Shown: positions 28,602 through 58,300 of the stretch, piece by piece
Position numbering within the stretch: position 1 is the first letter of the stretch
Layout: every line of letters begins with the position of its first letter
Source: Verrucomicrobiia bacterium
GTDB taxonomy: Bacteria > Verrucomicrobiota > Verrucomicrobiia > CAIQCK01
Direction of reading: 5' to 3'
Assembly: GCA_041667205.1 (NCBI GenBank)
Contig: JBAYFL010000003.1
Coordinates: 126,325 to 190,324 of the forward strand
DNA length: 64,000 nucleotides
Notes under the pieces: generated by a model
The model's database searches: none
Seen by the model: the letters and a program-made list of their open reading frames with translations, nothing else
What the model was told of the DNA's origin: nothing
Made by a program: the position numbers and the translations under genes

Positions 28602-29570
28602 ATGTTCTCGCTTCCCGACAATCCCCGCATTCTGGTGATTCGCGGCGGCGCGATTGGCGATTTCATCCTCACCCTCCCGGCCATCGGCGCGCTCCGCCAA
28701 CGCTGGCCGTCCGCGCGGCTGGAAATCCTCGGCTACCCGCGCATCGCCGCGCTCGCCGACGGGCGCTACTACGCCGACGCCGTCCGCTCGATTGACGCCG
28801 CAGCCATGGCACGCTTCTTCGTGCCGGAAGCCGAACTCGATCCGTCGCTCTGCGACTACTTCGCCAGCTTCGACCTCGTCCTCTCCTATCTCTACGACCC
28901 CGACGACATCTTCAGCGCCAACCTCGCCCGCGCCGGCGTTCCCCATCTTCTCCGCGCCTCGGCCAAGCCCGACCGCGAACACGCCGCCGCACACTTCGCC
29001 CGCCCGCTAGCCTCACTGGGCCTCCGCGCCGACCCGCCGCATCCGCGTCTCTACCCCAACGCCGCCGACCGCGCCTTCGCCGAATCCTTCTTCACTCTTC
29101 ACTCTTCACTCTTCACTCTTCACTCTCCCCGTCCCATCGCCCTCCATCCCGGCAGCGGCGGCGAACACAAAGTCTGGCCCGCCGACCGCTGGGCAGCCGT
29201 CATCCGCTGGCTGCGCGAACAACACGGCTGCGACATCCTACTCATCGGCGGCGAAGCTGACGACGCCGCGCGCCGCGCGCTCGCGCCATTCAACCTTCCC
29301 GTTGCGTGGAACCTGCCCCTGCCCCAACTCGCCGCCATCCTCGGACGCTGCGCGCTCTTCGCCGGCCACGACAGCGGCATCACCCATCTGGCCGCCGCCG
29401 TCGGCGTCCCGACGCTCGCGCTTTTCGGACCCACCTCGCCCAACATCTGGGCGCCGCTCGGCCCGCGTGTCCGCGTCGTCACCGCGAACGGCACGATGGA
29501 CACGCTCGCCGTGGAGATGGTGCTTGCGGTATTGCAGGAGGTGTTGCCCAACGTCGGAAAGTCTCGTTGA
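28602..29570 (+). CDS. Glycosyltransferase family 9 (LPS heptosyltransferase-like)
   Basis: 'ILVIRGGAIGDFILTLPAI' N-motif, and C-terminal 'GHDSGITHLAAAVGVPTLALFGPT' typical of RfaF/WaaC-type GT-B enzymes. Confidence 0.7.
   Translation: MFSLPDNPRILVIRGGAIGDFILTLPAIGALRQRWPSARLEILGYPRIAALADGRYYADAVRSIDAAAMARFFVPEAELDPSLCDYFASFDLVLSYLYDPDDIFSANLARAGVPHLLRASAKPDREHAAAHFARPLASLGLRADPPHPRLYPNAADRAFAESFFTLHSSLFTLHSPRPIALHPGSGGEHKVWPADRWAAVIRWLREQHGCDILLIGGEADDAARRALAPFNLPVAWNLPLPQLAAILGRCALFAGHDSGITHLAAAVGVPTLALFGPTSPNIWAPLGPRVRVVTANGTMDTLAVEMVLAVLQEVLPNVGKSR
29088..29127. repeat. Heptanucleotide tandem repeat (TTCACTC)x5.5 inside the GT9 coding sequence
   Basis: Five perfect units at 29091-29125 with partial flanking units. 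Encodes 'SFFTLHSSLFTLHS'. Confidence 0.85.
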
Positions 29571-29685: not shown

Positions 29686-30972
29686 TTACTTCGTCCAGCC
29701 GAGTTTGTTGTTCAGCCGCGCTTTGTGGTAGGCGACGCGCTCCGCGTTGCTCATGCGACCGAAGTCGGGCGAGCCGTCGGGGAACATCGGCCATGAGGTG
29801 ACGGCCGCAGCCGGTGCATACACACTCGCCTTGGCCGTGTCGCGCTGTAGCGGCGGTCTCTGACCGCCGGTTGTCCCAAGTTTCTTTGAGACGGTGACGG
29901 TGGTCGGGCCAGCGTAACTCATCGAGGTGTCGGTGAGCTGCATGTCCTCGTCCAACGGCCGCTGCGGCTTGATGCCAAGCCCTTGCAGAACGCCATGGTA
30001 GGCGCGCACGGCTTCCTCCGGTTGCACCTGGCCGTCCACGATCCGCCGCAGCATCTCGATGAACGCAAGCTGGTGCTCGGCGTTGTTGATCTTCCTGCCG
30101 AAGAGCGCAACGCGCGCGCCGTATTTCTGCGCCTCGGCAATGAGCTTGAAGGCGTCATAGGTGGTGCCTGCGCCACCGCCGAGGATTCCCACCGGCAGGC
30201 TCGGATCGTAGGCGGCAAGTTCCTCGGTGAGCTTCGGACCGTGATAGACCATCTTCAAAAACACCGGCCGGCCACGCTCCGTGACGCCCGCCAGCGAACG
30301 AACAATGCTGTCGTTGACGAACGCGCCAAGCTTCTCCGGCGCGAGGCCGCTGTCCACGTTCGGGTCGAAGATTTCGAGGAAGTAACGGAAGCCCTTCCGC
30401 TCCGCCTCCTCACGGAACTCCTTGAACTCGCGCAGCGACTGCATGTCGCGATGGATGCAGTTGACGAAGGTGACCGAATAGAGGCCGAGGTTCGCGCCAA
30501 GGACGCGTTCCTTCGGCTCGCACTCGACCTTGCCGCACTGGATATGGTCAATCGTCGCGCTGCGGAACGGCCGCGAGGCCTCGCCCACGTAACGGCCACC
30601 GCGCACGACCCAGATGTCGGTGGTATCGTTGGCTCGCGCCGCGGGCGTGATGTGGCTGTTGTCGAAAAGGCGCTCCTTGATGGTGAGCCGCTCGTTGGTC
30701 GAGGCGGACATCAACATGATGTCAATCAGCCCCTGTCGCGTCACCTCGCGGATCAACTCGCAGAAATCCTCCACCGTTCGATACTTCGCCTCGTCGGGGC
30801 GGAACGCCTCCGGCGACTTCAACGCGCGCATGCGGGGGTCGCTCGGACTGAGGCGGCCGAACGATTCGACGCCACGCGCCATGTCGGGATCCTTGGCGTC
30901 GGCAATAATGAACGTCCGCGTCTGCGGGTTGCTGCGGATTTCCGCCAGCTTGGTATCGAGTGATTTTTGCAT
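29686..30972 (-). CDS. Class I aldolase superfamily (LacD/FbaB/LsrF-like) TIM-barrel protein; last gene of the BMC operon
   Basis: 'FIIADAKD' beta1-Asp motif, 'PVFLKMVY' candidate Schiff-base Lys strand and 'GARVALFGRKI' C-motif parallel those of LsrF/YihT. Start chosen at MQKSLD. Confidence 0.45.
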   Translation of the reverse strand: MQKSLDTKLAEIRSNPQTRTFIIADAKDPDMARGVESFGRLSPSDPRMRALKSPEAFRPDEAKYRTVEDFCELIREVTRQGLIDIMLMSASTNERLTIKERLFDNSHITPAARANDTTDIWVVRGGRYVGEASRPFRSATIDHIQCGKVECEPKERVLGANLGLYSVTFVNCIHRDMQSLREFKEFREEAERKGFRYFLEIFDPNVDSGLAPEKLGAFVNDSIVRSLAGVTERGRPVFLKMVYHGPKLTEELAAYDPSLPVGILGGGAGTTYDAFKLIAEAQKYGARVALFGRKINNAEHQLAFIEMLRRIVDGQVQPEEAVRAYHGVLQGLGIKPQRPLDEDMQLTDTSMSYAGPTTVTVSKKLGTTGGQRPPLQRDTAKASVYAPAAAVTSWPMFPDGSPDFGRMSNAERVAYHKARLNNKLGWTK

Positions 30973-31070
30973 TTGGGAACCGTGGCTCGCGATTCGCAAT
31001 TTGCAATCCGTGGCCCTGACAACCGCCACCGCTCGAATCACAAATCACGTATCGCGAGCCACAATCATCC

Positions 31071-32129
31071 TTACTTGTTCAGCGCCTTCATGACTTCTTC
31101 GGTCACAATCTTCACGATCGAATCCAAATCCGGCGACTGCGCCGATCCTTCGCCGGGATTTGCGCAAACCACGCCGGGCCGGAACTCGCACGCGCAGTAG
31201 TCCGCTTCCTTCAAACCAGTGCGTTCGTCAGGCAGACCGAGGCCCTGTTTGATCTTCAGCAGGTCGCCGATCTTGCTGCTCGGAATCTGCGTAAACGCCG
31301 AGCCGAGGTGCGACGCGATGACGACCGTGCGGCAATACGCGTCCACGATCTCCATGAACCAGTAGGCCTTCTCCAACTCCTCGTTCCACGTAAGGACGCC
31401 GTGGTTCTGCAGCAGGATGCAGTTGTGGTCCTTGCAATACGGCAGGACCGTCTCCGCGAATGCCTTCGTGCCCGGCGTCTCGTATTGCGCCTTCGCGACC
31501 GTGCCGACAAGCACTTCCATCTCCGGAATCATGCAGCGCGGCACCTCCGCGCCCGTGATGGCAAATGCCGTCGCGTGCGGTGGGTGCGCGTGGACGCAGG
31601 CGCGGGCCTTTGGCTGCGCCTTCATCGCTTCGAGGTGCAGGTAAATCTCGCTGGTGCGCTTGGCTGTGCCGGCGAGCTGGTTGCCGTCGAGATCCACCAT
31701 GCAGATGTCCTCGACGCGCATGATTCCTTTGCTCACCAGCGTCGGCGTGCAAAGCACTTCGTTTGGGCCGATGCGGACGCTGACGTTGCCGCCGTTGCCG
31801 TCCACGTATTCGCGCTTCCAGAGCCGGTGCGAAACGCTAACGATGTGCTCCTTGATACGCTGAGCCTCCGGCGAGTTGAACAGCTTCACGTGCTCCGGCT
31901 TCCACTTCGGTGTGGCCGCCGCGGGCGCGGGCGCACCATAGGGATCGCCGCCGTTCGAGCCGGCACTGCTCGCAGAAGCAGAAACCCCGTCGAACTGGAT
32001 CGTGACGCCGATGCTGCGCAGAAAATCCTTCGCCGAAGGCGTAACAATGGCGTCGGCCGGCGCGGCGAACGTCTTCGCTCCGCTGGCTTTCAGGTGGGTG
32101 ACATCTTTGAGTGCGATGACTTGTTTCAT
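31071..32129 (-). CDS. Class II aldolase (fuculose/rhamnulose-1-phosphate aldolase-like) with extra N-terminal domain and C-terminal encapsulation peptide
   Basis: 'GNGGNVSVRI', 'HAHPPHATAFA', 'LQNHGVLTW' class II aldolase/adducin motifs; a C-terminal amphipathic 'DLDSIVKIVTEEVMKALNK'. Confidence 0.8.
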   Translation of the reverse strand: MKQVIALKDVTHLKASGAKTFAAPADAIVTPSAKDFLRSIGVTIQFDGVSASASSAGSNGGDPYGAPAPAAATPKWKPEHVKLFNSPEAQRIKEHIVSVSHRLWKREYVDGNGGNVSVRIGPNEVLCTPTLVSKGIMRVEDICMVDLDGNQLAGTAKRTSEIYLHLEAMKAQPKARACVHAHPPHATAFAITGAEVPRCMIPEMEVLVGTVAKAQYETPGTKAFAETVLPYCKDHNCILLQNHGVLTWNEELEKAYWFMEIVDAYCRTVVIASHLGSAFTQIPSSKIGDLLKIKQGLGLPDERTGLKEADYCACEFRPGVVCANPGEGSAQSPDLDSIVKIVTEEVMKALNK

Positions 32130-32419
32130 GATTTCTTTGGCGGCATGTAATTGATTGTGTCCACGATAAGCGCGTTGTAAGCGTCAATCGGGCTTTCTTG
32201 TTCAAATGGCTGCGCGGCCTCGCGGCCCTCGACGTAACCGATGATGTTGCCGGTGCCCGCGCCGAGATTGTCGTAGCACACCAGCGACGGTTCCGTTGGC
32301 TGACCCTTGCCAGCGAGCGCCTCGCGGTTCAACGGCTGCACGACAAGCCAGCGGCCGCCGGTGAACGAATCCACCTGCCGTGACAACGTCACTTTGCCGA
32401 TGACCTTGCCGAGTTTCAT
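32126..32419 (-). CDS. BMC vertex protein (BMC-P, EutN/CcmL/PduN family)
   Basis: 'MKLGKVIGKVTLSR...' EutN-type N-terminus; approximately 97 aa. Confidence 0.8.
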   Translation of the reverse strand: MKLGKVIGKVTLSRQVDSFTGGRWLVVQPLNREALAGKGQPTEPSLVCYDNLGAGTGNIIGYVEGREAAQPFEQESPIDAYNALIVDTINYMPPKKS

Positions 32420-32673
32420 GTGTCTATGATCCCGATGACGCTGTTCCGAATCGGCGTCTTGCGGCAGTTCAACAACTCCGTCGCGTGTTTGCCGTCGGTC
32501 GTCACCATGACGCGCGAGTGAAGCCCCGAGCCGAGCGGGTCAATCGCTATCGTCGGCGAACCGATTTCCACGCCGTCCGCCGTGATAGGCTGGCAAATCA
32601 CGAACCGCCATCCGTGTGCACTCTTGTGCTTTACGGTGGCCGTCACATTGCCATCTACGCGACAGAGCATCAT
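32416..32673 (-). CDS. BMC vertex protein (BMC-P) paralog
   Basis: 85 aa, 'MMLCRVDGNVTATVKHKS' EutN-like. Confidence 0.7.
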   Translation of the reverse strand: MMLCRVDGNVTATVKHKSAHGWRFVICQPITADGVEIGSPTIAIDPLGSGLHSRVMVTTDGKHATELLNCRKTPIRNSVIGIIDT

Positions 32674-32676
32674 GGT

Positions 32677-34146
32677 TTAGTAAATCCTCAACGAACCGGA
32701 CATCGTCAATCGGCGGAACCGAGTGTAAGTGAGCGGCGTCGTAATGCCCTCGCCGGTCGGCGTCGCGATGGAGTAGCTCAGGTAGCCTTCGCCACCGCCG
32801 CCGAGACCGGCGGTGCAAGGGCCGTTCGCGACAAAGATCGTCGTGTTCATCACCCGCGCCATCTCGGTGATCGTGTCGAGATTGCGGGAGTGAATGATCG
32901 CCGTGTGCCGGTAGTTGTGCTCGGCATGCTTCGACCGCTCAATGCCCTCGGCCGCGTCGCGCACGCGCACGACCGGCACGAACGGCATCATCTGCTCTTC
33001 CTCGACGAACGCGTGGTCCGCGTCCGTCTCGCCGAAGAGCAGCTCGCAACCGGACGGCACGTTCGCGCCGGCGGACTGCGCCAGCACGCTCACGTCCTTG
33101 CCGACGAGCTTCTTGTTCAACACCGGATGCGGACAGCCTGCGCCCTGGCCTTTTTCAAAAGTGAAAGCGTCTTTTGTCAGCGCCTCGATTTGCTGCGCAT
33201 TCAACTCGAACGCGCCGGCTTTCTTGAACGCCGCAATGAACCCGTTCCAAGCCTTGGCGGTGACAAAGATTTCCTTCTCACCGATGCAGAGCAGATTGTT
33301 GTCGTAACCGCCGCCGGCGATGATGCCCTTCGCGGCGTTATCGAAATCAGCTGTCTCATCCACCACGACGGGCGGATTGCCAGGGCCAGCGCAGATCGCG
33401 CGCTTGCCGGACGCCATCGCGGCCTTCACGACTGCCGGGCCGCCGGTCACGCACAGCAACGCGATATTCTGGTTGCTGCAAATCGCCTTGAAGCTCTCCA
33501 TCGTCGGCGGTTCAGCCGTGCAAAGCAGGTTCTCGATGCCGAGCGCGCCATGAATCGCCTCGTTGAACGCGCGCACCGCCATCGCCGCGCACTTGCTGGC
33601 AGCGGGGTGCGTGTTGAACACGACGGCGTTACCGGCGGAGACCATGTTGATCGCGTTGCAGCCGAGCGTAGGGATCGAGTGAGTCGAGGGCGTAATCGCG
33701 CCGATGACGCCGAACGGCGCGCACTCGTCAATCGTCGCACCGTTGTCGCCGGTCATCGCGACCCGGCGCAGAAAGTCCACGCCGGGAACTTTCTTCAGCA
33801 CCTTCAGCTTCTCGATCTTATGGTCAAGTCGACCAATTTTCGTCTCTTCCAACTCGATCCGGCCCCACGACTCCGCGTTCTTTTCGCAGAGCGTCTTGAC
33901 AATTTCCTCGACCTTGCGGCGGCCTTCAACTCCAGCCTTCGCAAGCTGCTTCTGCGCATGCGCAGCGGCTTCGCAGGCTTCGTTCGCGTCCGCGAAGATG
34001 CCGAAGCGGTTCGGCGCTCCAGCCTTCCGCGCAGACGGGCCGTGCGACGCCGGAGCAGGCGCTGCGGACATCGGCTGCTTCAGGCGGGCGATGACGTCCT
34101 GAACCAGATCGCGTATCTGTTGTTCGTTAATCGCAGGTGCGCTCAT
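32677..34146 (-). CDS. CoA-acylating aldehyde dehydrogenase (PduP/EutE family) with N-terminal encapsulation peptide
   Basis: N-terminal amphipathic 'INEQQIRDLVQDVIARL' plus an Ala/Pro linker, and catalytic Cys region 'LLCIGEKE'. Length and family fit PduP-like enzymes. Confidence 0.85.
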   Translation of the reverse strand: MSAPAINEQQIRDLVQDVIARLKQPMSAAPAPASHGPSARKAGAPNRFGIFADANEACEAAAHAQKQLAKAGVEGRRKVEEIVKTLCEKNAESWGRIELEETKIGRLDHKIEKLKVLKKVPGVDFLRRVAMTGDNGATIDECAPFGVIGAITPSTHSIPTLGCNAINMVSAGNAVVFNTHPAASKCAAMAVRAFNEAIHGALGIENLLCTAEPPTMESFKAICSNQNIALLCVTGGPAVVKAAMASGKRAICAGPGNPPVVVDETADFDNAAKGIIAGGGYDNNLLCIGEKEIFVTAKAWNGFIAAFKKAGAFELNAQQIEALTKDAFTFEKGQGAGCPHPVLNKKLVGKDVSVLAQSAGANVPSGCELLFGETDADHAFVEEEQMMPFVPVVRVRDAAEGIERSKHAEHNYRHTAIIHSRNLDTITEMARVMNTTIFVANGPCTAGLGGGGEGYLSYSIATPTGEGITTPLTYTRFRRLTMSGSLRIY

Positions 34147-34156
34147 GTTGTTTCAA

Positions 34157-34468
34157 TCACTTGCCGGTTTTGAAGATGATCTTGCCACCAACGTCCACGG
34201 CATCCACGATGCCGACAACGACCGCGTCCACCGGCGCGTCCTTCAGGCCATTAGCAAGCCGGGCGGAACTGCCCTGGCAAAACATCACCATCTCGTCCTC
34301 GCCTGCGCCGACGCTGTCCACCGCCACAATGGTGTTCACGCCGGGTTTGAGCTTCGTGTGGTCCTTGTCGTCCACGAGCATGGGCCGAAGGATGAGCAGC
34401 TTGCGGCCGAGCATCTTCGGGTCCTTCTTCGTGGCAACAACCGAGCCTTCAACTTTAGCCAAAAACAT
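34157..34468 (-). CDS. BMC vertex protein (BMC-P) paralog
   Basis: 'MFLAKVEGSVVATKK' EutN/CcmL N-terminus. Confidence 0.75.
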   Translation of the reverse strand: MFLAKVEGSVVATKKDPKMLGRKLLILRPMLVDDKDHTKLKPGVNTIVAVDSVGAGEDEMVMFCQGSSARLANGLKDAPVDAVVVGIVDAVDVGGKIIFKTGK

Positions 34469-34541
34469 AAGGCCTCCGGGTTAATACGTAATGCGCAATA
34501 CGTAAGTTCTGCCTTACGCATTACTCGTTACGTATCACGCT

Positions 34542-34832
34542 TTACTTCTTCGATGATGCCGCGATCTTCGGCAGCACCACGCTGGTTTCCTCGTGCGGAC
34601 GAGCGATGACGTGGACGCTGACGACCTGGCCAATGGCCTTGGCCGCTTGAGCGCCCGCGTCGGTCGCCGCTTTGACAGCGGCAACATCGCCAACCACAAC
34701 GGCGGTCACGAGGCCGCTGCCGACCTTTTCCATGCCGACGAGTTTGACGTTGGCGGCCTTGAGCATTGCGTCCGTCGCCTCGACGAGCGCCACCAAGCCC
34801 TTTGTTTCAATCATTCCAATTGCATCTGCCAT
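34542..34832 (-). CDS. BMC-H hexameric shell protein (PduA/EutM family)
   Basis: '[25 protein letters not shown]...GDVAAVKAA' canonical BMC domain. Confidence 0.85.
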
Positions 34833-34861
34833 GTTCGTTCTCCTGTTCTATCTTTCTTTGG

Positions 34862-35983
34862 CTACTTCCTGCTTTCCAAAAGTTTTTTCACTTCGCGCGC
34901 CACGACAATTTCCTCGTTCGTCGGCACAACCATGATCTTCGCGCGCGAATCGGTCGTGCTGATGACTGTTTCCTGTCCTCGCTGATGAGCCGCGTTCTTT
35001 GCCGGATCGAGCCGGATGCCAAACCAATCGAGGTTGGCGCAAACCATTTCGCGCAACTGCGCCTGATTTTCGCCAATGCCGGCCGTGAACACGATGGCAT
35101 CGGCGCCGTTGAGCTGAACGAGGTAAGCCCCGATCCAGTGCCGGATGCTGTGCGCAAACACTTCCATCGCTAACTTCGCCCGCGCGTTACCTTGCTCGGC
35201 GGCGGTCGCGATATCGCGCACGTCGTTCGAGACGCCGCTGATGCCGAGCAGACCGCCTTCCTTGTTCATCGAACGGACAATCTGGTCAATCGTCAGCCCG
35301 TGCGTCTTCATCAGGAACGGAATCGCAAACGCGTCCAACTCGCCCACCCGGTTGTTGTGCGGCAGACCGGACTGCGGGCTCATGCCGAGCGAGTTGCCGA
35401 CGCCGCGGTTGCCGTGCGTCGCGCCGATGCTGTTGCTGCCGCCAAGGTGACACGAGATCACGCGGAGGTCGCTGCCACCGAGCAGTTTTGCAACGCGCTC
35501 GGCGATGTAGCGATGACTCGCGCCGTGAAACCCATAGGGCCGCACGCCCCAATCGGTCCATTGCTGCGGCACGGCATAACGCTTCGCCGCCTCTGGAGCA
35601 TTGACCCACCACGCCGTCTCAAACAACCCAACCATCGGCGTTCGCGGCAGCTTCTCACGGAACTTGCGGATACCGGCGATGTAAGGCGGGTTATGCGACG
35701 GCGCCACCTCGTTCATCTCCTCCATCGCCTTTAGCACGTCCTCGGTCAGCTCTGCGCAACCGAGAACGCCCTTGGCCAGCACGGTCTTGAAACCAACTGC
35801 CGTCAACTCCTGCAAGCGCGGGAGCACGCCGCTGGCTTTCATTTCCGCGAGCGACTTCTCGATCGCGTCGCCGTAATCGGTAACGCGCTCGAAGCCGCCC
35901 TTGGCCAGCGTCGCCTCCGTCGTCATGTCGAGCAGACGATACTTGAAGGAGGTCGAGCCGATGTTGGCGATAAGGATTTTCAT
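34862..35983 (-). CDS. ackA: Acetate/propionate kinase
   Basis: Start MKILIANIGSTSFKYRL with an AGGAG RBS (the longer ORF from 36052 is an extension). 'GFHGASHRY' motif. Confidence 0.85.
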   Translation of the reverse strand: MKILIANIGSTSFKYRLLDMTTEATLAKGGFERVTDYGDAIEKSLAEMKASGVLPRLQELTAVGFKTVLAKGVLGCAELTEDVLKAMEEMNEVAPSHNPPYIAGIRKFREKLPRTPMVGLFETAWWVNAPEAAKRYAVPQQWTDWGVRPYGFHGASHRYIAERVAKLLGGSDLRVISCHLGGSNSIGATHGNRGVGNSLGMSPQSGLPHNNRVGELDAFAIPFLMKTHGLTIDQIVRSMNKEGGLLGISGVSNDVRDIATAAEQGNARAKLAMEVFAHSIRHWIGAYLVQLNGADAIVFTAGIGENQAQLREMVCANLDWFGIRLDPAKNAAHQRGQETVISTTDSRAKIMVVPTNEEIVVAREVKKLLESRK

Positions 35984-36055
35984 TGCTCCTGAACGCGAAA
36001 GACGCCTGGCACCGTGACCTTCACAGCGCCGCGCTTCCTCTAACGTCAACAAGCC

Positions 36056-36337
36056 TTACGCTGAAATCCACTTGCCGAGACCGGGCAATTCCTCGTGCGG
36101 GCGCGGAATGACGTGCACGCTGACGACCTCGCCCACCTGGGCTGCCGCAGCCGCGCCGGCGTCCACAGCGGCCTTCACCGCCGCCACGTCGCCCTTGAAG
36201 AATGCCGCGACCAGACCCGAACCGACTTTTTCCCAGCCGGTGAGTTGGACGTTGGCGGCCTTCAACGCTGCGTCGCATCCTTCGAGCAACGCCGTGAGAC
36301 CCTTCGTTTCGATCATACCAATTGCTTGCAGTGCCAT
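36056..36337 (-). CDS. BMC-H shell protein
   Basis: Start [13 protein letters not shown] with an AAGGAGA RBS; canonical BMC domain. Confidence 0.85.
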
Positions 36338-36347
36338 GTGCGTCTCC

Positions 36348-36617
36348 TTATCCAATGAATGACTTCAACAGTTCCGGGCTGGGGCGCGGAATGACGTGGC
36401 TGGCGACCAGTTCGCCCACCTTGCCCGCCGCCGCCGAACCCGCGTCCACCGCGGCCTTCACGCTGCCGACATCGCCCTTCAACAGGACGGTGACGTAGCC
36501 GCCGCCGATCTGGATGGTCTTGATCAACGACACGTTGGCGGCTTTCACCGCTGCGTCGCTGGCCTCAACCGCGCCGACGTAACCTTTCGTTTCTATGATG
36601 CCAATACCTTCGTTCAT
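36348..36617 (-). CDS. BMC-H shell protein
   Basis: Start [12 protein letters not shown] with an AGGAGA RBS; canonical BMC domain. Confidence 0.85.
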
Positions 36618-36658
36618 TTTTCTCCTATCGTTTTTCCGGGCGGCCAACAGGGCCGTCC

Positions 36659-37330
36659 TTACTTCAACAACTCTACTCTGCTGTCCGGCCGCAAGCCACA
36701 GGCGTTCCCCTCGTCGGTGTCTATGTGCACCTCGAGCTTGAACGACTTGTCCACGCGGACAACCAAATCCTCAAATACCGCGCCGCATTCGCCGCCGACG
36801 CGCAGTTTCATCTTATCGCCATGCTTGACGCCGTAAAATGCCGCGTCCTCAAGGTTCATGTGCACGTGCCGCAACGCGCGAATCACGCCCTCCTCCACCT
36901 CAAAAAATCCCTTCGGCCCCATCAACATGCACCCCGGCGTGCCCTTGATGTTGCCGCTCATCCGCACCGGCACGTCAAAACCAAGCATAATGGAATCCGT
37001 GAACGCCAACTCCACCTGGTTCAACGTGCGGCAGGGACCAAGAATGCGCAGGTTTGATATGACGCGGCTCCGCGGCCCGATCAGCGTCACCATCTGCTCG
37101 GCAGCATACTGGCCGTCCTGATAGAGCATTTTCATCGGCTTGAGTTGCGCCCCCTTGCCGAACAACGCCTCCACCGCCTCTTGCGTCAGATGACAATGCC
37201 GCGCGCTGACGTTGACGACCAGCGGATTCGGCGGCGCTTTCGGCACCGGCGCCGTGGGACGGAACCGCGCGTAAACCGCTTCCCGCACGATTTGCTCGAC
37301 CGTGGACCGCTGGATTTGAGGCACGCTCAT
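36659..37330 (-). CDS. pduL: PduL-type phosphotransacylase with N-terminal encapsulation peptide
   Basis: Start MSVPQIQRSTVEQIVREAV (amphipathic EP). Two PduL repeats with 'SARHCHL' / 'LRHVHMN' metal-site His motifs. The 5' part of the annotated ORF (37331-37525) is promoter DNA. Confidence 0.8.
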   Translation of the reverse strand: MSVPQIQRSTVEQIVREAVYARFRPTAPVPKAPPNPLVVNVSARHCHLTQEAVEALFGKGAQLKPMKMLYQDGQYAAEQMVTLIGPRSRVISNLRILGPCRTLNQVELAFTDSIMLGFDVPVRMSGNIKGTPGCMLMGPKGFFEVEEGVIRALRHVHMNLEDAAFYGVKHGDKMKLRVGGECGAVFEDLVVRVDKSFKLEVHIDTDEGNACGLRPDSRVELLK

Positions 37331-37373
37331 GGCTGTTCCAGATTCAATCAATATCTTCCAAAACCGAGCAAGA

Positions 37374-37402
37374 TAAATAACGGATTTACCAATATCTGTC
37401 AA
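37374..37402 (-). promoter_or_regulatory. Candidate sigma70 promoter (minus strand) TTGACA-N17-TATTTA for the BMC operon
   Basis: Read on the minus strand. Lies in the AT-rich divergent region between pduL and the DeoR gene, which also carries an 8-bp direct repeat CAATATCT at 37349 and 37390. Confidence 0.35.
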
Positions 37403-37444
37403 CAACTTCTTGCATATTTTTTCCGCCGGTGCCAAATTCCGGCC

Positions 37445-38203
37445 GTGAAAGCGCCCGAACGATTCCGCCGAATTCAGGACTTGCTCGGCCAGCACGAGTT
37501 CCTCGACCTCGCCACGCTGGCTCACGACCTGAAGGCGTCAGAATCTACCATCCGCCGCGACCTCGACCAACTCGCCGCCAAAGGCGCCCTCAAGCGCACC
37601 CACGGCGGGGCAATGGCCGTCGAGCACAAGACAGACGAGTTGAATTTCGTGGTCCGCGACACCCGCCAAGCGGATGAGAAAGACCTGATCGGGCGCGCCA
37701 CGGCCGCGCTCGTGGAGAACGGCATGTCGGTTATCATTGACGGCGGCACCACCACCTACCACGTCGCCAAGCATCTTGGCGGCAAGCGCATCCAAGTCAT
37801 CACTAATTCGCTCCCCGTCGCCAACCAGTTCAGCAATTCCAGCATGGTGGAGACGATCATGTGCGGCGGGTTCATCTTCCCCCGCATTGGCGTGCTGCTG
37901 GGGCCGCTCGCAGAAGAATCTTTCTCAAAACTCCACGCCGATGTCGCGATCATGAGCGCTGGCGGCATCACCAGCGAAGGCATCACCAACTCGAACAACC
38001 TGATCGTGGCGGTGCAACAGAAGATGATGGCCGCCGCCAGTCGCGTCATCCTGTGTCTGGATCACACCAAGTTCGGGCGGCACGCACTCTCTTTTGCCGC
38101 ACCGCTGGAGAAGATTCACACCGTCATTACCGACAAGGACACCCCGCGCGACCAGATTGCCATGCTGCAAAAGCAGCGCATCGAAGTCATCGTCGCCCGC
38201 TAG
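37445..38203 (+). CDS. DeoR/GlpR-family transcriptional regulator, divergent from the BMC operon
   Basis: GTG start giving MKAPERFRRIQDLL. HTH 'STIRRDLDQLAAKGALKRTHGGA' and a C-terminal DeoR sugar-phosphate-binding domain. Confidence 0.75.
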   Translation: MKAPERFRRIQDLLGQHEFLDLATLAHDLKASESTIRRDLDQLAAKGALKRTHGGAMAVEHKTDELNFVVRDTRQADEKDLIGRATAALVENGMSVIIDGGTTTYHVAKHLGGKRIQVITNSLPVANQFSNSSMVETIMCGGFIFPRIGVLLGPLAEESFSKLHADVAIMSAGGITSEGITNSNNLIVAVQQKMMAAASRVILCLDHTKFGRHALSFAAPLEKIHTVITDKDTPRDQIAMLQKQRIEVIVAR

Positions 38204-38805
38204 CTTTGCTCTTCCTTTTCGTCCTCTTCCTGGACAGCGCGCAGCTTGTCGTCGGCTTCATCACTCCCGTCCCACTCGGCGGGCGACCACGAAAGAATCT
38301 CGTTGATCTCGTCGTAGCAGTGGAGGCTGCTGCCATTGAAATAGCGGTCATTGAGTTTCGCCACCAACTCCTCTTCCAACTCCAGATCATCCACGGCGTG
38401 CGCGTAATGATGCGTCTTGTTCAGAAGCTTCACCCGCAACTCGATGAGGTTGTCCACCAACTCACGATAACTGCTCTGCTCATCGTCCACGAACAACGGC
38501 AGCGCGAACAGCTTGCCTCCGGGGTCTTCGCCCGGCTGTAGCGCGATCTTCAGCCGCAACCGGCCTTCATCCATCTCTGACTCCGCGGTAAACAAGGCAA
38601 ACGCCTTCGCAAACGTCGCCCGCTGGAACCCGATGGCATAATACTCCCCCAGCCGTTCCGCGATGTCGCGGAACTGGCGCGGGTCGAGCACGCTCAATCC
38701 CTCGCGTGGCCAGTAAATCTCATCGCTGGTCTTTTCCACCCACCAGTTCATGTCGTTGCCGAGGCGCACAACGATCCATTGCGGCAATATTATTTCCTTT
38801 TCCAC
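38200..38805 (-). CDS. Hypothetical protein with acidic C-terminus
   Basis: 201-aa ORF convergent with the DeoR gene; no motifs recognised. Confidence 0.4.
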   Translation of the reverse strand: MEKEIILPQWIVVRLGNDMNWWVEKTSDEIYWPREGLSVLDPRQFRDIAERLGEYYAIGFQRATFAKAFALFTAESEMDEGRLRLKIALQPGEDPGGKLFALPLFVDDEQSSYRELVDNLIELRVKLLNKTHHYAHAVDDLELEEELVAKLNDRYFNGSSLHCYDEINEILSWSPAEWDGSDEADDKLRAVQEEDEKEEQS

Positions 38806-46632: not shown

Positions 46633-46652
46633 TGGCTGGCCCTCACGGTAGC

Positions 46653-46683
46653 CCATCTCCCATCTCCCAACTCCCATCTTCCG
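46653..46683. repeat. Heptanucleotide tandem repeat CCCATCT-CCCATCT-CCCAACT-CCCATCT
   Basis: Intergenic. The same unit set recurs, inverted, inside the CDS at 56275..56306. Confidence 0.8.
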
Positions 46684-47495: not shown

Positions 47496-47834
47496 ATCTT
47501 CTGGCTTCACCGTTTGCAAACAAGTCCCGTCGGGCGGAACGACCGATACGACAAGACGTTCGGGCGAGACGCCCGACACTACAACGCTCTCATCGCCTCA
47601 GATGTTCCGCTTCAGGCCGCGGATGAGGCGTCCGGCTTCGGGACCGTTCTCCGCCTGCGGCTACATCATGTAAAGACGAAGAGTGATGAGTGAAATGTTT
47701 CCTCGGCGTTTGTAGCGTCGGCCGTCTCGGCCGAGCCGCAGCAGCGTTAGAATCACACCGCCATCCGCGCCAATCCGTGTTTCATCCGCGGCCAGCAACA
47801 CTGACCTCATACGAGGGATGCGGCCGTCCCGCCC

Positions 47835-48806: not shown

Positions 48807-48810
48807 CGTA

Positions 48811-48845
48811 GTGAAGAGTTATGAGTGAAGAGTGAAGAATTATGA
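48811..48845. repeat. GTGAAGA-type short repeat cluster (AGTGAAGAGTTATGAGTGAAGAGTGAAGAATTATGA) in the sucD-sucC spacer
   Basis: Reverse complement of the TCTTCAC/TTCACTC heptamer seen at 29088. A related GAGAGTGAAGAATTA lies at 52975..52995. Confidence 0.6.
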
Positions 48846-51857: not shown

Positions 51858-52859
51858 TTATCTCACCGTCATATACGGCGCGTCGCAGGGCGCGTCCCAA
51901 TACTTCAGCATCTCGTCATCCATCTTCGCGACGAACATCTGGAAGCCGCCCATCTCCTGCACTGTCAGGTATTCGCCGACGCGGGCGCGCGCCAGCACGA
52001 CGCCTTTCTGCGCGAGCACCTGCCCGACACGGCGCATGACAATGAACTGCTCCATCAGCGTCGTCGAGCCGGCGCCGTTGATGATCACCAGCACCTTGTC
52101 GCCCGCCTTGGCTTTGACGGCTTCGATCAACTGCGTCACCATGATCTCCGCCGTCTCGTTGGCGCTCTTCATCTTCGAGCGTCCCGTGCCGGCCTCGCCG
52201 TGCTGGCCCATGCCTATCTCCATCTCGTCGTCGGCCAGCGCGAAGATGGACTGGCCGCTCGCCGGATGCGTCGCCGTCGTCAACGCCACCGCGAGCGTGG
52301 CCATGTTGTTGTTGAACCGCTCCGCCAGCGCGAGCACCTCGTCGAGGCTCTTGCCAGCCTCCGCGGCGGCGCCGGCGATCTTGTAAAGCGGGATGCAGCC
52401 AACGAGACCGCGGCGGTTCTCGGCGGGAGCGTTCGCGCCGGGAGCGATGTCCTCGTGCGTGAGGATGCTCTTGACGTTGAGGCCCGCTTTCTTGGCCATC
52501 TGCATGGCGATGTTCGAACTCATCACGTCGCCCGCGTGGTTGAGCACCACCAGCAATGTCCCCGCCGGGCGGTTGACCTGCTTGAGCGCGTCGAACACCT
52601 TCGGCGCGGCGGGCGCGGCAAAGATGTCGCCCACGACGCTGATATCGAGCATGCCCTCACCGACGAACCCGCTGAGCGCCGGCTCGTGGCCCGCGCCGCC
52701 GAGCGTGACCAGCGCCACCTTCGACGGGTCCTTCGCACGCGCGCGGCAGACGAGTTTCTCGTTCTTCAACGCCACCTTGTCGCTGTAAGCGAGGGCAAAG
52801 CCCTCCAGCAACTCCGGCGTGAGGTTCTTCGGGTCGTTGATAAATTTCTTCATAGCCAT
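51858..52859 (-). CDS. dhaK: Dihydroxyacetone kinase dihydroxyacetone-binding subunit
   Basis: 'MKKFINDP', 'KVALVTLGGAGHEP', 'MGQHGEAG' (active-site His) colinear with E. coli DhaK. GGAGAA RBS. Confidence 0.85.
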   Translation of the reverse strand: MAMKKFINDPKNLTPELLEGFALAYSDKVALKNEKLVCRARAKDPSKVALVTLGGAGHEPALSGFVGEGMLDISVVGDIFAAPAAPKVFDALKQVNRPAGTLLVVLNHAGDVMSSNIAMQMAKKAGLNVKSILTHEDIAPGANAPAENRRGLVGCIPLYKIAGAAAEAGKSLDEVLALAERFNNNMATLAVALTTATHPASGQSIFALADDEMEIGMGQHGEAGTGRSKMKSANETAEIMVTQLIEAVKAKAGDKVLVIINGAGSTTLMEQFIVMRRVGQVLAQKGVVLARARVGEYLTVQEMGGFQMFVAKMDDEMLKYWDAPCDAPYMTVR

Positions 52860-53059
52860 GGCTGTTGTTCTCCTCTGCTAGTCGTGTTCCGCGTCAGGAA
52901 AAGCGCCCGTGTTCTTACAAGGTTCCACCGCCGATGCCAAGCGCAGTTTCAACAGGAAAATTAAGAGTTCAGAATTGAGAGTGAAGAATTACAGACACGA
53001 AAAGAGCGCAAAGATCCCGGAACTCTTAACTTCTCATTCTTAATTCTCCGTCGCCCTAC

Positions 53060-54954: not shown

Positions 54955-55381
54955 AATTCGGAGCGATTAATAGTTTGCCGTGCTTAGGGCGACGGTGAAG
55001 CTGCTGTTGGTGGTGATGCCGGCTTGCCGCCAGTGGGCGTCGTTCGTGGGGCCGGCGTCTATGACCTCGCCGTTATGGAGTTGGCTTGGATCGAAGATTG
55101 GCATGTCTCGGCCCTTTCCTCATGGGCGGTTTCTACCGCAGCAGGCGAAGAAATGGAAACAAATTCTCCGCCCCGAAAAATGCGAAAGGACGCGAAAGGG
55201 GGGAAGCTGTCAGTTGTCGGCTGTCAGCTTTCAGCTTTGGGCAAGCGACGGTCGGAGACCGCCGGCGTAGGCCGGGTCCCCGACCCGGCGTAACCGTCAT
55301 CGCCACGTGTGGGCACGTGGCCTACAACGAGATCGGCGGTCATAGACCGCCGCTACAGGATCGGCTGACGGCTGATTCTCG

Positions 55382-58300
55382 TCACTCCTCGATAATGACG
55401 CGGAAGCCGACGTTGTAGGGGCGCTGCCAGTTGGGGACGGCGAGACGGAAGGCGGAGCGCGCGAACTTGGGGCGCTCATACCAGGAACCGCCGCGGACGA
55501 CTTTGTTGCCGGGGAGGTTGGCGTCGTTGGCACCGGCCCCGTCGCTGTAGGGATAGGGGCGGAAGTTGGTGAGGGTCCACTCGCGGGCGTTGCCGTGCAT
55601 GTTCTTGAGGCCCCAACGATTGGCGGCGAAGGCGTCCACGTCAGCCAGCATCAGGACGCCGTCGTTGAACCGCTCTTCCTTGGGGATGAAGTCCCAGAAC
55701 TTGTCGGGGTTCTTGATCGGCTTCGGGTCCACGCCGCTGACGGCCATGAGGCTGAGGGATTTGTCGCCGAGGTTTTCGAGCACGGAGAAGTCGGTGTCGA
55801 GGGTGCCGTAGTTCATGGCGGTGTCGGTGCCGGCGCGGCAGGCCCATTCCCATTGCGCCTCGGTCGGCAGGGTGACGCGCTTGCCGGTCTTCTGGGCGAG
55901 CCACTGGCAGAACTTCATCGCGCCATCCCACGAGATGCGGATGACGGGCAGCTTCGGGTCGTCCATCGAGTAGCCGGGGTTGACCTGGTCCTTGTAGTGG
56001 CGGTCGTAGTAGCCGTTCTTGTGCGCGGGGTTGAACGCCTGATATTGCGCGAGGGAAACTTCGGTGACGGCCATCCAGAACGGTTTGGCGACGCGCACGG
56101 CGGCGGTGGGCGATTCGTCGGGGAAACCGTTCACGTCGCCCATGACGAACTCGCCGGCGGGGATGCGCTTGAACTTCATCGTCAGGCCGCCGCCGATATC
56201 GAGGGTCATCTCGGTGTTGCCGAGCGCGGCCTGTATCTGCGCGGCTTTGGCGGCGTCGAACGGCCAGTTCTTGGCAGATGGGAGATGGGAGTTGGGAGAT
56301 GGAGTCTTGGCGGGTTCCGGCGCGGGCGGGACGAACGCGAGGCGCTGGGTGTAGTTGACCGGGATCGTTTCGATGTCCTCGTCCACGTTGGCGTAGAGTT
56401 TCTTCATCTCGTAGCGGCGCTTCTCGAAGTTCTTCGGGATCTCGCGCGCCTCGTGCCACGTGCCGTAGCAGGGAACGTTGAGGTCAATCCACGTGATGAT
56501 GCGGTCCCAGGCTTCGGCGTCGAGCTTGACGTTATGGTGGCCCTTCTGGAGCATCTGCACCAGTTCGCTGGTGTTGGCGTGAAACTCAAGCGGCGCGAGG
56601 AGGCTGTAGTCGCCTTCGGGGCCGTTGCGGCGCACGAACGGGTGCAGCGCCAGATACGAAGCGGGCAGCGGCGAGCCAGTGGTGGTGCGGACGATGTTGG
56701 TATCGGCGAAGTTCGGCTGCGTGGCGATCTTGCCGTCGTGGCAGCCGACGCAATACTTGTCGAGCACGGGCTGCACCTCGCGCACGAACGCGAAGCCGCG
56801 CTTCGGGCCGCGCCACGGAGCGGGGACGGATGGCGCGCTGCGCGTGGCATCGCTGGGGTTGAGAGTGAGCGAGTAGTTCTGCTGCTCATGGCAGCCGGTG
56901 CACGAGATGTTTTCGCCTGGCATGCCGACAAACCAGCTACGCATCTGCTGCAGCGCCTTGCCCTCAGCGTCGAGCGGCTGGATGGCGATCGGGATGTTCG
57001 CGGGAATCTCGAAGAACGCCGAACCGTCGGGATGAACCGGCACGGTGCCGATGATCCGCCGCACGTCCCACGGGCCTTCCATGCCGACGAAGTAGTGGCC
57101 GCCCATGTTCCGGTAGGAATACTCATACTGAAAGAGGCGCAGCGACTTGACCGTGCCCGGCGGAACGCCCGCCAACCCGCGGCCCGCGGTGATGTCCTGA
57201 ATGGAAACCGTGGCGGTCTTCTTGTCGAGGTCCACCTTGTCGGGGATGACTGGCGGCGGCGTGGTCTTGCGCAGCGGGATCGGCTCGAACATCGCCTGGC
57301 CCGGCTGCTCTTTCAGCAAGATCATGTTGTCGAAGATGTCCACGAGATAAACGCCCCAATTCGCGCGCGGGTCGGGCTTGCAGGAAACGAGGAACTGTTT
57401 GTCACTCAGCGGGAACGGATGCAGAAACTTCGGCCACGAGTCGTTCACGAGACCATCCTTGATCACCGCCTCGACCGGTTTGCCGTAGCCGGGAATTTTC
57501 TGGACCGCGCCGGCGCCTTCCTGCCGGCCCTTGGAGGCATCGAAGATAACCAGTTCGCCAGCGCGCGCCACGCCGTGATGGCCGGAGATGACCGCGCTGA
57601 ACATCGAGGGCTTGCCCGGCAGCGGCTTGGCGTAGAACATCGAGTTCGGCCAGTAGCTGTTGCTGCCGTAGAACTCCTGCTGGCGCGTGCCGTCCGGGTT
57701 CATGTGCATCATCACACGGCTGAAGTAGTGCGCCGAATCGGTGTATTCCCAGCGCAGATACATGACGCGGCCGTCCTCCATCATGGTGGGATACCAGTCG
57801 TTGTCTTGGTCGAACGTGAGCCGGCGGATGTTGCTGCCGTCGGCGTTCATGATGTGGAGGTTGGCGACGTAATCGCTGCCGCCGACGCACGGCACGCCTT
57901 GGAACGTGGAGCTTGAATCGAAGATGATGCGCCCGTCGGGCAGATACATGCCGTCGTAGTTGTCTATGTCGTCGTATTCGCCGCGCGACACCTGACGGAG
58001 GCCGCTGCCGTCGAGCTTCATTTCGAAAATCTGCCAGCGGTCATTGGAACCGATGGATGAGAACAGGATGCGCTCCCCGTCGAAATGGAGCCGCATGTCG
58101 CCTACGAACACATCTTTCTTCGGTTTGTAGATGCGCTGCAACAAGGGGTTCTTCTCACGGATAGACATCGCAGCAACTTCGTTGACGGTAGCAGGGTTGA
58201 CACTGGAATTGCCCTGCCAGTTTGCGGGCAAGCCGAGCCGGCTGCCGTCGCGCTTGACGAGCAGGATTTTGTCGAAATCAATCACCGGATTATTGATGAT

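Follow-up and report, generated by a model that had tools for sequence, protein, structure and literature searches.

The window analysed here is a stretch of 64,000 nucleotides (64 kb) from contig JBAYFL010000003.1 of a Verrucomicrobiia bacterium, and the element of interest is a perfect heptanucleotide array, (TTCACTC)x5.4, at 29089..29126 on the forward strand, inside a gene for a family 9 glycosyltransferase (GT9). The gene is an open reading frame (ORF) of 322 amino acids (aa) at 28602..29570 (+); its product has a predicted GT-B fold, in which the N-domain runs to about residue 166, a loop spans residues 167–178 and the C-domain starts with the strand at residues 179–181. We compared the array with its counterparts in orthologous genes, with other repeats of the lineage and with known heptanucleotide systems. 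The reading that we consider probable is that of a slippage-prone, translated array that belongs to a clade-wide repeat class, occupies a permissive loop between two domains and is kept at five units because selection favours an intact GT9 enzyme.

A perfect heptamer array in a glycosyltransferase gene

Tandem Repeats Finder reports the array with period 7, 5.4 copies, 100% matches and a score of 76, and the bases of the window read ...GCCGAATCC TTC, (TTCACTC)x5 and then TCCCCGT... The first-pass annotation of the window had described five perfect 7-bp units plus partial ones at 29088–29127; the units are as it described them, and its span overshoots the array by one base on either side. The coding strand of the array contains no G, and the encoded residues are F163–S175 (FFTLHSSLFTLHS). 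Among perfect tandem repeats of at least three copies and period 5–12, this array stands alone in the 64 kb. With imperfect arrays admitted (at least four units, at least 85% self-match), the window holds arrays of period 7 only (n = 3), plus one GCCC run, and block shuffles of the 64 kb give an expectation of 0.0–0.1 such arrays.

The ORF scores 99.5 bits against the Pfam profile PF01075, Glyco_transf_9 (E = 2.6e-28; gathering cutoff 22), which places the array inside a GT9 gene, as had been proposed. Its scores lie under the curated cutoffs of all the lipopolysaccharide heptosyltransferase I, II and III equivalogs (TIGR02193, 78.1 versus 185.3 bits; TIGR02195, 64 versus 134.6; TIGR02201, 69.9 versus 170.2), and the enzyme is therefore placed only as GT9, with no narrower specificity. 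The top matches of the window protein are glycosyltransferase family 9 proteins of metagenome-assembled genomes from uncultured Verrucomicrobia/Verrucomicrobiia. Across the clade the gene is conserved, syntenic and single-copy, and is not an accessory outer-glycan gene.

Within the gene, the array sits in a hypervariable linker-coding segment of 61 nt (29084..29144, +), which lies between the conserved sequences ...TTCGCCGA and CATCCCGGCAGCGG... (HPGSGG motif) and holds the array and a tail, TCCCCGTCCCATCGCCCTC.

The array encodes a loop between two domains

An AlphaFold model of the GT9 protein, built with 35 orthologs, has a mean predicted local distance difference test score (pLDDT) of 88.6 and shows two Rossmann-like halves. 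A helix at residues 154–166 is followed by a loop and by a strand at residues 179–181 (IAL of IALHPGSGG) that opens the C-terminal Rossmann domain; pLDDT in the array region is approximately 80–92. According to this model, the array encodes the end of the last helix of the N-domain and the loop that leads into the C-terminal Rossmann domain. Escherichia coli WaaF (1psw, a Protein Data Bank match with E = 2e-14) has a similar loop length at the aligned position.

Simulated changes in unit number indicate what a step at this position would do to the protein. Four units give a 395-aa out-of-frame product, six units a truncated product of 221 aa and three units one of 214 aa; two units (315 aa) and eight units (329 aa) both remain in frame. 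The in-frame class of the array is n = 2 mod 3 (2, 5 and 8 units in simulation; 5 and 8 units observed), and the earlier expectation that gain or loss of one unit would frameshift the C-terminal half of the enzyme agrees with the simulated four- and six-unit products. No in-frame ATG, GTG or TTG lies between the array and the HPGSGG motif, and an internal translation start after the array was rejected for this reason.

Orthologs keep the array and rewrite its unit

In a protein alignment of orthologs, the linker is the sole hypervariable stretch. We compared 16 distinct DNA alleles of it, cut between the two conserved flanks. The window allele consists of TTC, (TTCACTC)x5 and a 19-nt tail. At the orthologous locus L019 (91% aa identity to the window), the units are TTCACTC TTAACTC TTCACTT TTAACTC TTAATTC, with the tail as in the window. 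Two loci at 87%, each with a linker of 55 nt, read TTCACTC TTAACTC TTCATTC TTAACTC TTAACTC (L014) and TTAACTC TTCACTC TTCACTC TCAACTC TTCACTC (L001). Linkers of 55 nt are also found at 85%, where L002 and L003 have mixed units resembling those of L001, L004 has TTCACTG (TCCACTG)x3 CTCACTC and L005 has CTAGCGC CAATCAC CAATCAC GAATTAC CAATCAC. L025 (protein P0017) carries TTCTCCG AACTCGC TTCACGC TTCACGC ACCGCGC in 61 nt, L021 (P0011) an array of the L025 type with eight units in 82 nt (+21 nt), L032 and L040 (P0010/P0020) five degenerate units (61 nt in L032), and L042 (68% aa) (CATCAAC)x3 CACTCCC CATCCCC in 52 nt.

In the remaining alleles no such array is recognisable. In L015 (1385–1487) and L038 (765–867) it is replaced by unrelated palindromic inserts, hairpin or REP/MITE-like (resembling repetitive extragenic palindromes or miniature inverted-repeat transposable elements), which are translated in frame and give linkers of equal length, exactly 103 nt; P0028 has an insert similar to these hairpin inserts (SRRREEADAATDKANRLLTSAA). 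L045 (68% aa) has 14 nt with no recognisable repeat and is 21 nt shorter. The linker of P0027, exactly 21 nt shorter, was considered as a two-unit state and set aside: its 14 nt contain no repeat, and it may equally be pre-array. Across the 16 alleles the number of units is five, except for one allele with eight, one perhaps with two and the two with a hairpin insert. Orthologs at 39–47% identity (L007–L011) have ordinary linkers with no 7-nt periodicity. Because the same site, the same register and five units recur in orthologs down to 68%, the five-heptamer array appears to be ancestral to the clade that reaches at least 68% protein identity.

It is the DNA periodicity that is conserved and not the peptide, because the unit varies by lineage (TTCACTC, TTAACTC, TCCACTG, CAATCAC, TTCACGC, CATCAAC); the encoded linkers read FFTLHSSLFTLHS, FLTLNSSLSTLHS, FFTVHCPLSTAHS, FLAPITNHELPIT, FFSEHASRFTLHAS and FHQPSTINHSPS. 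A conserved protein feature, in which a peptide of the type FTLHS… would be selected and the DNA periodicity incidental, would fit a region that is always translated in frame and is modelled at the fair confidence given above. The ortholog alignment contradicts it, however, with a peptide that varies and a 7-nt DNA period that is kept, and a 7-nt periodicity has no protein-level rationale over 12 residues; we regard this explanation as very improbable. The first-pass annotation had named orthologs with the same, conserved in-frame FTLHS-encoding sequence as part of what would speak against phase variation. An in-frame array is indeed present at this position in the orthologs, but its peptide is not conserved.

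For the window population itself, no independent assembly crosses the tract. The 322-aa protein P0359 (NCBI MFA6561038.1), a non-representative member of a cluster headed by the 117-aa fragment P0240, is apparently identical to the window protein; its contig, L039, was rejected as a second witness of copy number because it is the same contig as the window (100% over 20,969 nt). L037, an independent assembly of the window population (99.86%), was rejected because it begins at 29216, 90 nt 3′ of the tract. This lack of a second assembly of the exact population is what speaks for a tract, or a copy number, made by mis-assembly, a caveat that the first pass had raised. Such an artefact is nevertheless hardly credible: at 38 nt the tract falls far below both k = 141 and the read length, the reading frame is unbroken, and five units recur at this position in orthologs that were assembled independently and with different assemblers.

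Concerted evolution within a fixed reading frame

The linker evolves differently from the gene around it. Among 11 orthologs, mean pairwise DNA identity is 0.605 in the linker versus 0.837 in the remaining gene, and sliding-window identity falls to a trough of 0.47–0.66 at the linker alone (versus 0.84 elsewhere in the gene). Where homogenisation has gone furthest, in four of the arrays, identity among the three central units is 0.905 within an array, versus 0.437 between lineages at the same position. These values show concerted evolution of the array. Concerted evolution alone is no proof of intermediates with the gene out of frame (hereafter OFF, as opposed to ON), because conversion without length change could homogenise the units.

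In a neighbour-joining (NJ) gene tree from which the linker was left out, the window groups with L019, L014, L005 and L015 in a shallow cluster whose branching is unresolved. The linkers of this one cluster comprise the perfect TTCACTC array, mixed arrays at two loci, a CAATCAC array and, in one case, a hairpin insert; L038, the other locus with a hairpin insert, is sister to L001/L003. Given such differing linker contents within one shallow cluster, array replacement and homogenisation are quick. TTAACTC at units 2, 4 and 5 is common to L019 and L014, and the window has TTCACTC throughout, a difference that requires non-independent, unit-to-unit change under any topology. A sister relationship of the window and L019, which would polarise the perfect array as derived, was considered and rejected, as the NJ tree is unresolved at this point (0% bootstrap).

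Unit number has changed as well. L021 (eight units) and L025 (five units) are 95.2% identical over 4.4 kb, which indicates a recent net change of exactly three units. A further heptamer array lies in the spacer that precedes the neighbouring 183-aa gene; it comprises approximately 3 units in L001–L003, 5 in L004, 6–7 in L019, 9 in L005 and L015 and 8–10 in L025, L021 and L040, with nearly none in the window. Because this unconstrained array spans approximately 3 to approximately 10 units among the same loci, heptamer copy number is labile on this time scale. Within GT9 only n = 2 mod 3 survives, which we infer to be the outcome of slippage and conversion under purifying selection for an intact enzyme.

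Neighbouring arrays also resemble one another in their units. At L004, the GT9 array and an intergenic array approximately 1.1 kb upstream belong to the same unit family (TCCACTG versus TCCACAG), and at L005 both are made of CAATCAC; these common unit families point to ectopic conversion between arrays. The same matches suit an account in which the linker is an insertion hot spot, a landing or conversion site where arrays and hairpins were written independently in each lineage from other repeat loci. The very close lineages L015 and L038, with unrelated palindromic inserts that both give a 103-nt linker, would fit such an account, as would the difference between CAATCAC and TTCACTC at 4/7 positions inside a shallow clade. 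All alleles, however, have the same boundaries and register (…GA NNNN TTC + 35 nt + RTCGCCMTY), with five units almost everywhere, which independent insertions would hardly produce, and mixed TTCACTC/TTAACTC patterns common to several lineages indicate descent. The account moreover overlaps the explanation that we favour, where ectopic conversion is already allowed, and as a separate explanation we find it rather improbable.

The favoured explanation, an array held at five units, could work as follows. Short heptanucleotide arrays form a class found throughout the lineage (described below), and the GT9 copy would be its in-ORF representative, placed at a loop that tolerates almost any sequence, and a five-unit array would have stood at exactly this site since the ancestor of the clade spanning at least 68% protein identity. 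Change at the DNA level would come from slipped-strand mispairing or unequal exchange, together with unit-to-unit or ectopic conversion, and would lead to lineage-specific homogenisation of the units, the window copy having probably been made perfect recently. Purifying selection for an intact enzyme would let through frame-preserving states only: 5 units, once 8 and possibly 2. The perfect tract would then be the dominant null-mutation hot spot of the GT9 gene and could give low-rate reversible frameshifts. In this way, repeat dynamics and reading-frame selection together may shape a protein linker, with position and unit number kept while lineages rewrite the unit.

In-frame alleles at the loci compared

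Slipped-strand phase variation, the central proposal of the first-pass annotation, is upheld as to the tract, the GT9 ORF, the frameshift, the length threshold and the evolutionary dynamism; the copy-number polymorphism with OFF alleles that it implies was not found. With 5.4 uninterrupted units, the GT9 tract passes a screening threshold of at least three units for heptanucleotide simple sequence repeats (SSRs; PMC2651432). Seven loci collected by tblastn are unbiased with respect to frame (L001–L005 from species-representative genomes, L014 and L015 from metagenomes), and all seven are ON, intact over residues 1–315 or more. No OFF allele is present among the 16 DNA alleles or approximately 30 protein alleles, every one of which is in frame, and the 16 DNA alleles include none of the four- or six-unit forms that the first-pass annotation had proposed to look for. 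Clusters at 90% contain no length variants (318 aa, five members; 316 aa, two; 317 aa, three; 332 aa, two; 319 aa, two). Searches with the N- and C-terminal halves of the protein for truncated or frameshifted alleles returned, in the close clade, contig-end fragments only (P0121, P0240 and P0029); these searches appear to list proteins up to approximately 1.75 times the query length, and 395-aa alleles one unit short could escape them. A metagenome scan with the protein gave 6 loci, 3 of them close, and no population series.

The phase-variable gene neuO provides a yardstick: in 64 genomes it has 3–53 copies of its repeat and is OFF in 65.6% (PMC13001214). At this OFF rate, the probability of seven ON alleles out of seven is approximately 6e-4. 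At the level of consensus sequences, this excludes a free-running switch of high frequency; GT9 could still switch at a low rate or be OFF in minority sub-populations.

The sole hint of heterogeneity comes from a sister population (P0121; 88% aa, perfect TTCACTC units), which is represented by four contigs of approximately 2 kb from four samples, all ending in or just after the array. Three of these (L033, L034 and L036; JGI 3300022553, 3300013092 and 3300025307) have the identical end point ...TTCATTC (TTCACTC)3 TTC, and the fourth (L035; ENA ERZ27245777) goes on for a few bases, diverging into ...TTCACTC TGTAAAGT. No assembly of this lineage crosses the linker. A very long tract is argued against because only approximately 31 nt of repeat stand at the contig ends, which more likely reflect branching of the assembly graph at the linker, from copy-number variants or from alternative linker contents. 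In practical terms, microdiversity and broken contigs are likely to arise at heptamer tracts when metagenomes are assembled.

A group of relatives at 55–62% (P0131, P0133, P0137, P0162, P0174, P0201 and P0221) has N-terminal-half ORFs that are broken at or near the linker, with tails that correspond to the +2 frame of HPGSGSEKKNWP; some lie on contigs of 73–474 kb. They were considered as OFF alleles and rejected, as there is no baseline for them and long-read frameshift errors are possible. The orthologs sampled at 39–47% (L007–L011, which are other proteins than this truncated set) are without a heptamer array.

A genuine contingency locus would be one in which slippage turns GT9 ON (5, 8 units) and OFF (4, 6, 7 units), reversibly and with elevated frequency, and the resulting surface-glycan heterogeneity is selected, for example under phage or grazer pressure. 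Several properties of the tract conform to this description: its uninterrupted length exceeds the screening threshold, a one-unit change frameshifts the C-domain, the n = 2 mod 3 rule mirrors the neuO rule (n divisible by 3), units turn over in evolution, contigs of the sister population break at the array in four samples, and the target is a glycosyltransferase. We nevertheless consider such a locus unlikely. No OFF allele occurs in the seven frame-unbiased loci or in the DNA and protein alleles, and the number of units is fixed at 5 over approximately 30% protein divergence, versus 3 to 10 units in the unconstrained neighbour array. Most lineages have interrupted arrays, which are poor at slipping, and five units is far under the 13–53 of proven heptanucleotide switches. 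Conservation and synteny of the gene extend over the whole clade. Arrays of the same class, finally, also adjoin housekeeping genes such as sucD and sit in the linker of another protein; the presence of the tract thus does not presuppose selection for switching. Adaptive ON/OFF switching by the tract is possible but unsupported.

Some observations also weigh against an array held at five units by selection, the reading that we prefer. Transient OFF alleles must arise, because concerted evolution and the 5-to-8 change show gain and loss of units, and minority OFF cells would be invisible in consensus assemblies. The window tract is perfect, which is the state most prone to slippage. The clustered protein database had limited power for alleles one unit short (approximately 395 aa), and the contig ends of the sister population fit within-sample heterogeneity at the linker.

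If the tract were a working contingency locus, which the evidence here does not establish, it would extend this strategy to free-living bacteria, in the form of an uncultured environmental Verrucomicrobia bacterium. To our knowledge, contingency loci come almost only from host-adapted pathogens and are essentially undescribed in free-living freshwater and groundwater bacteria.

A lineage-wide class of heptamer arrays

A repeat census over 240.5 kb (the window and 15 related loci; arrays of at least four units with at least 76% self-match) found 25 arrays of period 7, compared with 5 of period 5, 8 of period 6, 1 of period 8 and none of periods 9–11. This Verrucomicrobia clade is characterised by arrays of period 7. 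In the window, the TTCACTC dimer TTCACTCTTCACTC has 7 matches with up to two mismatches versus 0.33 expected, and this excess and the period-7 census bear out the earlier suggestion that a slippage-prone heptamer class exists in this genome. The first-pass annotation had also located the heptamer family, as GTGAAGA, at two intergenic sites. The recurrence holds at the first, where an imperfect TTCACTC array in the reverse complement (48810..48838, −) occupies the sucC–sucD intercistronic spacer and ends 2 nt before the sucD ATG (...TTCTTCACTCTTCACTCATAACTCTTCACTACG ATG). The second, at 52959..52991 (−), approximately 80 nt upstream of a Dak1-domain ORF (51858..52877, −), amounts to no more than a degenerate array of period 7/14, in which GTGAAGA occurs once on the plus strand. 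A two-unit TTCACTC-like site (TTCACTCATCACTC) lies at 47681..47694 (−).

Other units are found in the window as well. Intergenic arrays consist of (CCCATCT)x4 at 46652..46679 (+; 90% matches) and (AGCTGTC)x4.6 at 55205..55236 (80% matches; no strand assigned). A second in-ORF array, with CTCCCAT x4.4 on the coding strand, lies at 56272..56302 (−) in an ORF of 1333 aa (55382..59383, −) and encodes TPSPNSHLPSA, a linker between an HZS_alpha-like middle region and a C-terminal FGE-sulfatase domain; its unit is that of the intergenic CCCATCT array, present here in reverse complement. Units at related loci include TTACTGA (one base from TAACTGA), CAATCAC, GTCCACA and CCCATCT.

The intergenic arrays tend to lie next to start codons. 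Among eight examined, seven end no more than 14 nt from the downstream start codon, and six no more than 5 nt. The start-codon-adjacent arrays are the window array at 48810..48838 and those at L019 9403–9447 and 8042–8071, L004 5397–5437, L005 5277–5347, L015 189–257 and L025 4311–4345; no Shine–Dalgarno motif is visible at these arrays. The GT9 array, which has no start codon downstream, is the in-ORF exception. No RNA family in Rfam overlaps any array. Our literature search returned nothing on heptanucleotide repeats in Verrucomicrobia, nor on heptanucleotide short tandemly repeated repetitive sequences (STRR) in cyanobacteria; cyanobacterial STRR heptamers were reportedly described by Mazel et al. 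in 1990.

These features could also be drawn together into an active, lineage-wide heptamer-array system, in which arrays would serve as Shine–Dalgarno-independent leaders at start codons and be copied or converted between loci, and the GT9 copy would be kept as a reversible, low-rate frameshift switch of a cell-envelope glycosyltransferase, or as a ‘tuning knob’ for its linker length in 7-aa steps. Copying or conversion between loci, as proposed, would explain the unit families common to neighbouring arrays and the units swapped between close relatives. We consider the system as a whole doubtful, and would retain the array held at five units as the better description of the GT9 copy.

Genes downstream of the glycosyltransferase

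Directly downstream of GT9, at approximately 29686..38700 on the minus strand, lies a bacterial microcompartment locus (gene calls from L039) with genes for a class II aldolase, three EutN/CcmL proteins, an aldehyde dehydrogenase, bacterial microcompartment (BMC) shell proteins, an acetate kinase, a PTAC phosphotransacylase and a DeoR regulator. We take it to resemble the sugar-degradation microcompartment of the Planctomycetes–Verrucomicrobia type. At 31668..31675, 8 nt of the window (GCCGGCGA, with flanks of GCTG microhomology) are missing from L037 (2446–2460), the 99.86% assembly of the same population, and as a result the class II aldolase gene, which encodes 352 aa in the window, falls into two ORFs of 184 aa and 153 aa. 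This difference, which lies outside tandem repeats, stems from an indel polymorphism or else from an error of assembly.

Comparison with known heptanucleotide systems

Repeats of this kind belong to a broader class of long SSRs with units of 5–11 nt (LSSR). As far as the survey of Mrazek et al. (2007) is summarised in a later paper (PMC4679880), heptanucleotides are the commonest long-unit class in repeat-rich genomes, polymerase slippage is the proposed cause, and repeats inside ORFs are mostly multiples of three. The GT9 array departs from this last pattern: throughout a whole clade, the interdomain loop of an enzyme has retained a repeat whose unit length is not divisible by three.

Heptanucleotide SSRs of Haemophilus influenzae are regarded as mediators of phase variation; they occur in the promoters of hmw1A and hmw2A and, in strain PittAA, inside an ORF as (AATTTTG)14, where a frameshift was observed (PMC2651432). 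The in-ORF location is thus similar. The H. influenzae tracts, however, have 13–38 units and vary between strains (PMC2651432), whereas the GT9 tract has 5 and does not vary in number among relatives.

A closer parallel is neuO, the O-acetyltransferase gene of the CUS-3 prophage in E. coli K1, which contains a translated variable number tandem repeat of the heptanucleotide 5′-AAGACTC-3′ (PMC13001214). In both genes, a heptamer repeat within the coding sequence is translated in all three phases, a full-length protein results for one class of n mod 3, and steps of three units alter protein length by 7 aa. The neuO tract, however, lies at the 5′ end of the gene and is long (3–53, commonly approximately 20 units), variable and OFF in 65.6% of genomes (PMC13001214), whereas the GT9 tract lies in an interdomain linker with 5 units (8 once), no OFF allele was found among the alleles compared, and its class is n = 2 mod 3 rather than 0. 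By analogy, the GT9 array would work most like neuO, as a translated repeat under a modulo-3 rule, yet it fails the population signature of neuO.

As a genomic element, the array finds its counterpart in the TAACTGA direct repeats of marine Beggiatoaceae, Cyanobacteria and some Bacteroidetes (MacGregor 2015, PMC4679880). These arrays have 2–6 units and are dispersed; most lie just upstream of a start codon, at a distance of a few nucleotides and with no Shine–Dalgarno sequence, and the rare copies inside ORFs are peripheral to domains (PMC4679880). The Verrucomicrobia arrays are similar in occurring at many loci per genome beyond chance, in their proximity to start codons (seven of eight within 14 nt) and in having in-ORF copies in linkers; related Verrucomicrobia loci even use TTACTGA, one base different. 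The two sets differ in their units. One unit dominates in the TAACTGA genomes, where related heptamers are rare (PMC4679880), whereas the Verrucomicrobia clade uses many (TTCACTC, CCCATCT, TTACTGA, CAATCAC, TCCACWG and others), which differ between close relatives. The GT9 unit is TTCACTC, and the phylum Verrucomicrobia lies outside those reported (PMC4679880). Read forward, TAACTGA moreover brings a stop codon into every frame, whereas TTCACTC leaves all three open. On balance of these likenesses and differences, the GT9 array appears closest, as a genomic element, to arrays of the TAACTGA type. The heptamer arrays at start codons, themselves unexplained, thereby gain a further phylum and many different units beyond those reported for Beggiatoaceae, Cyanobacteria and Bacteroidetes.

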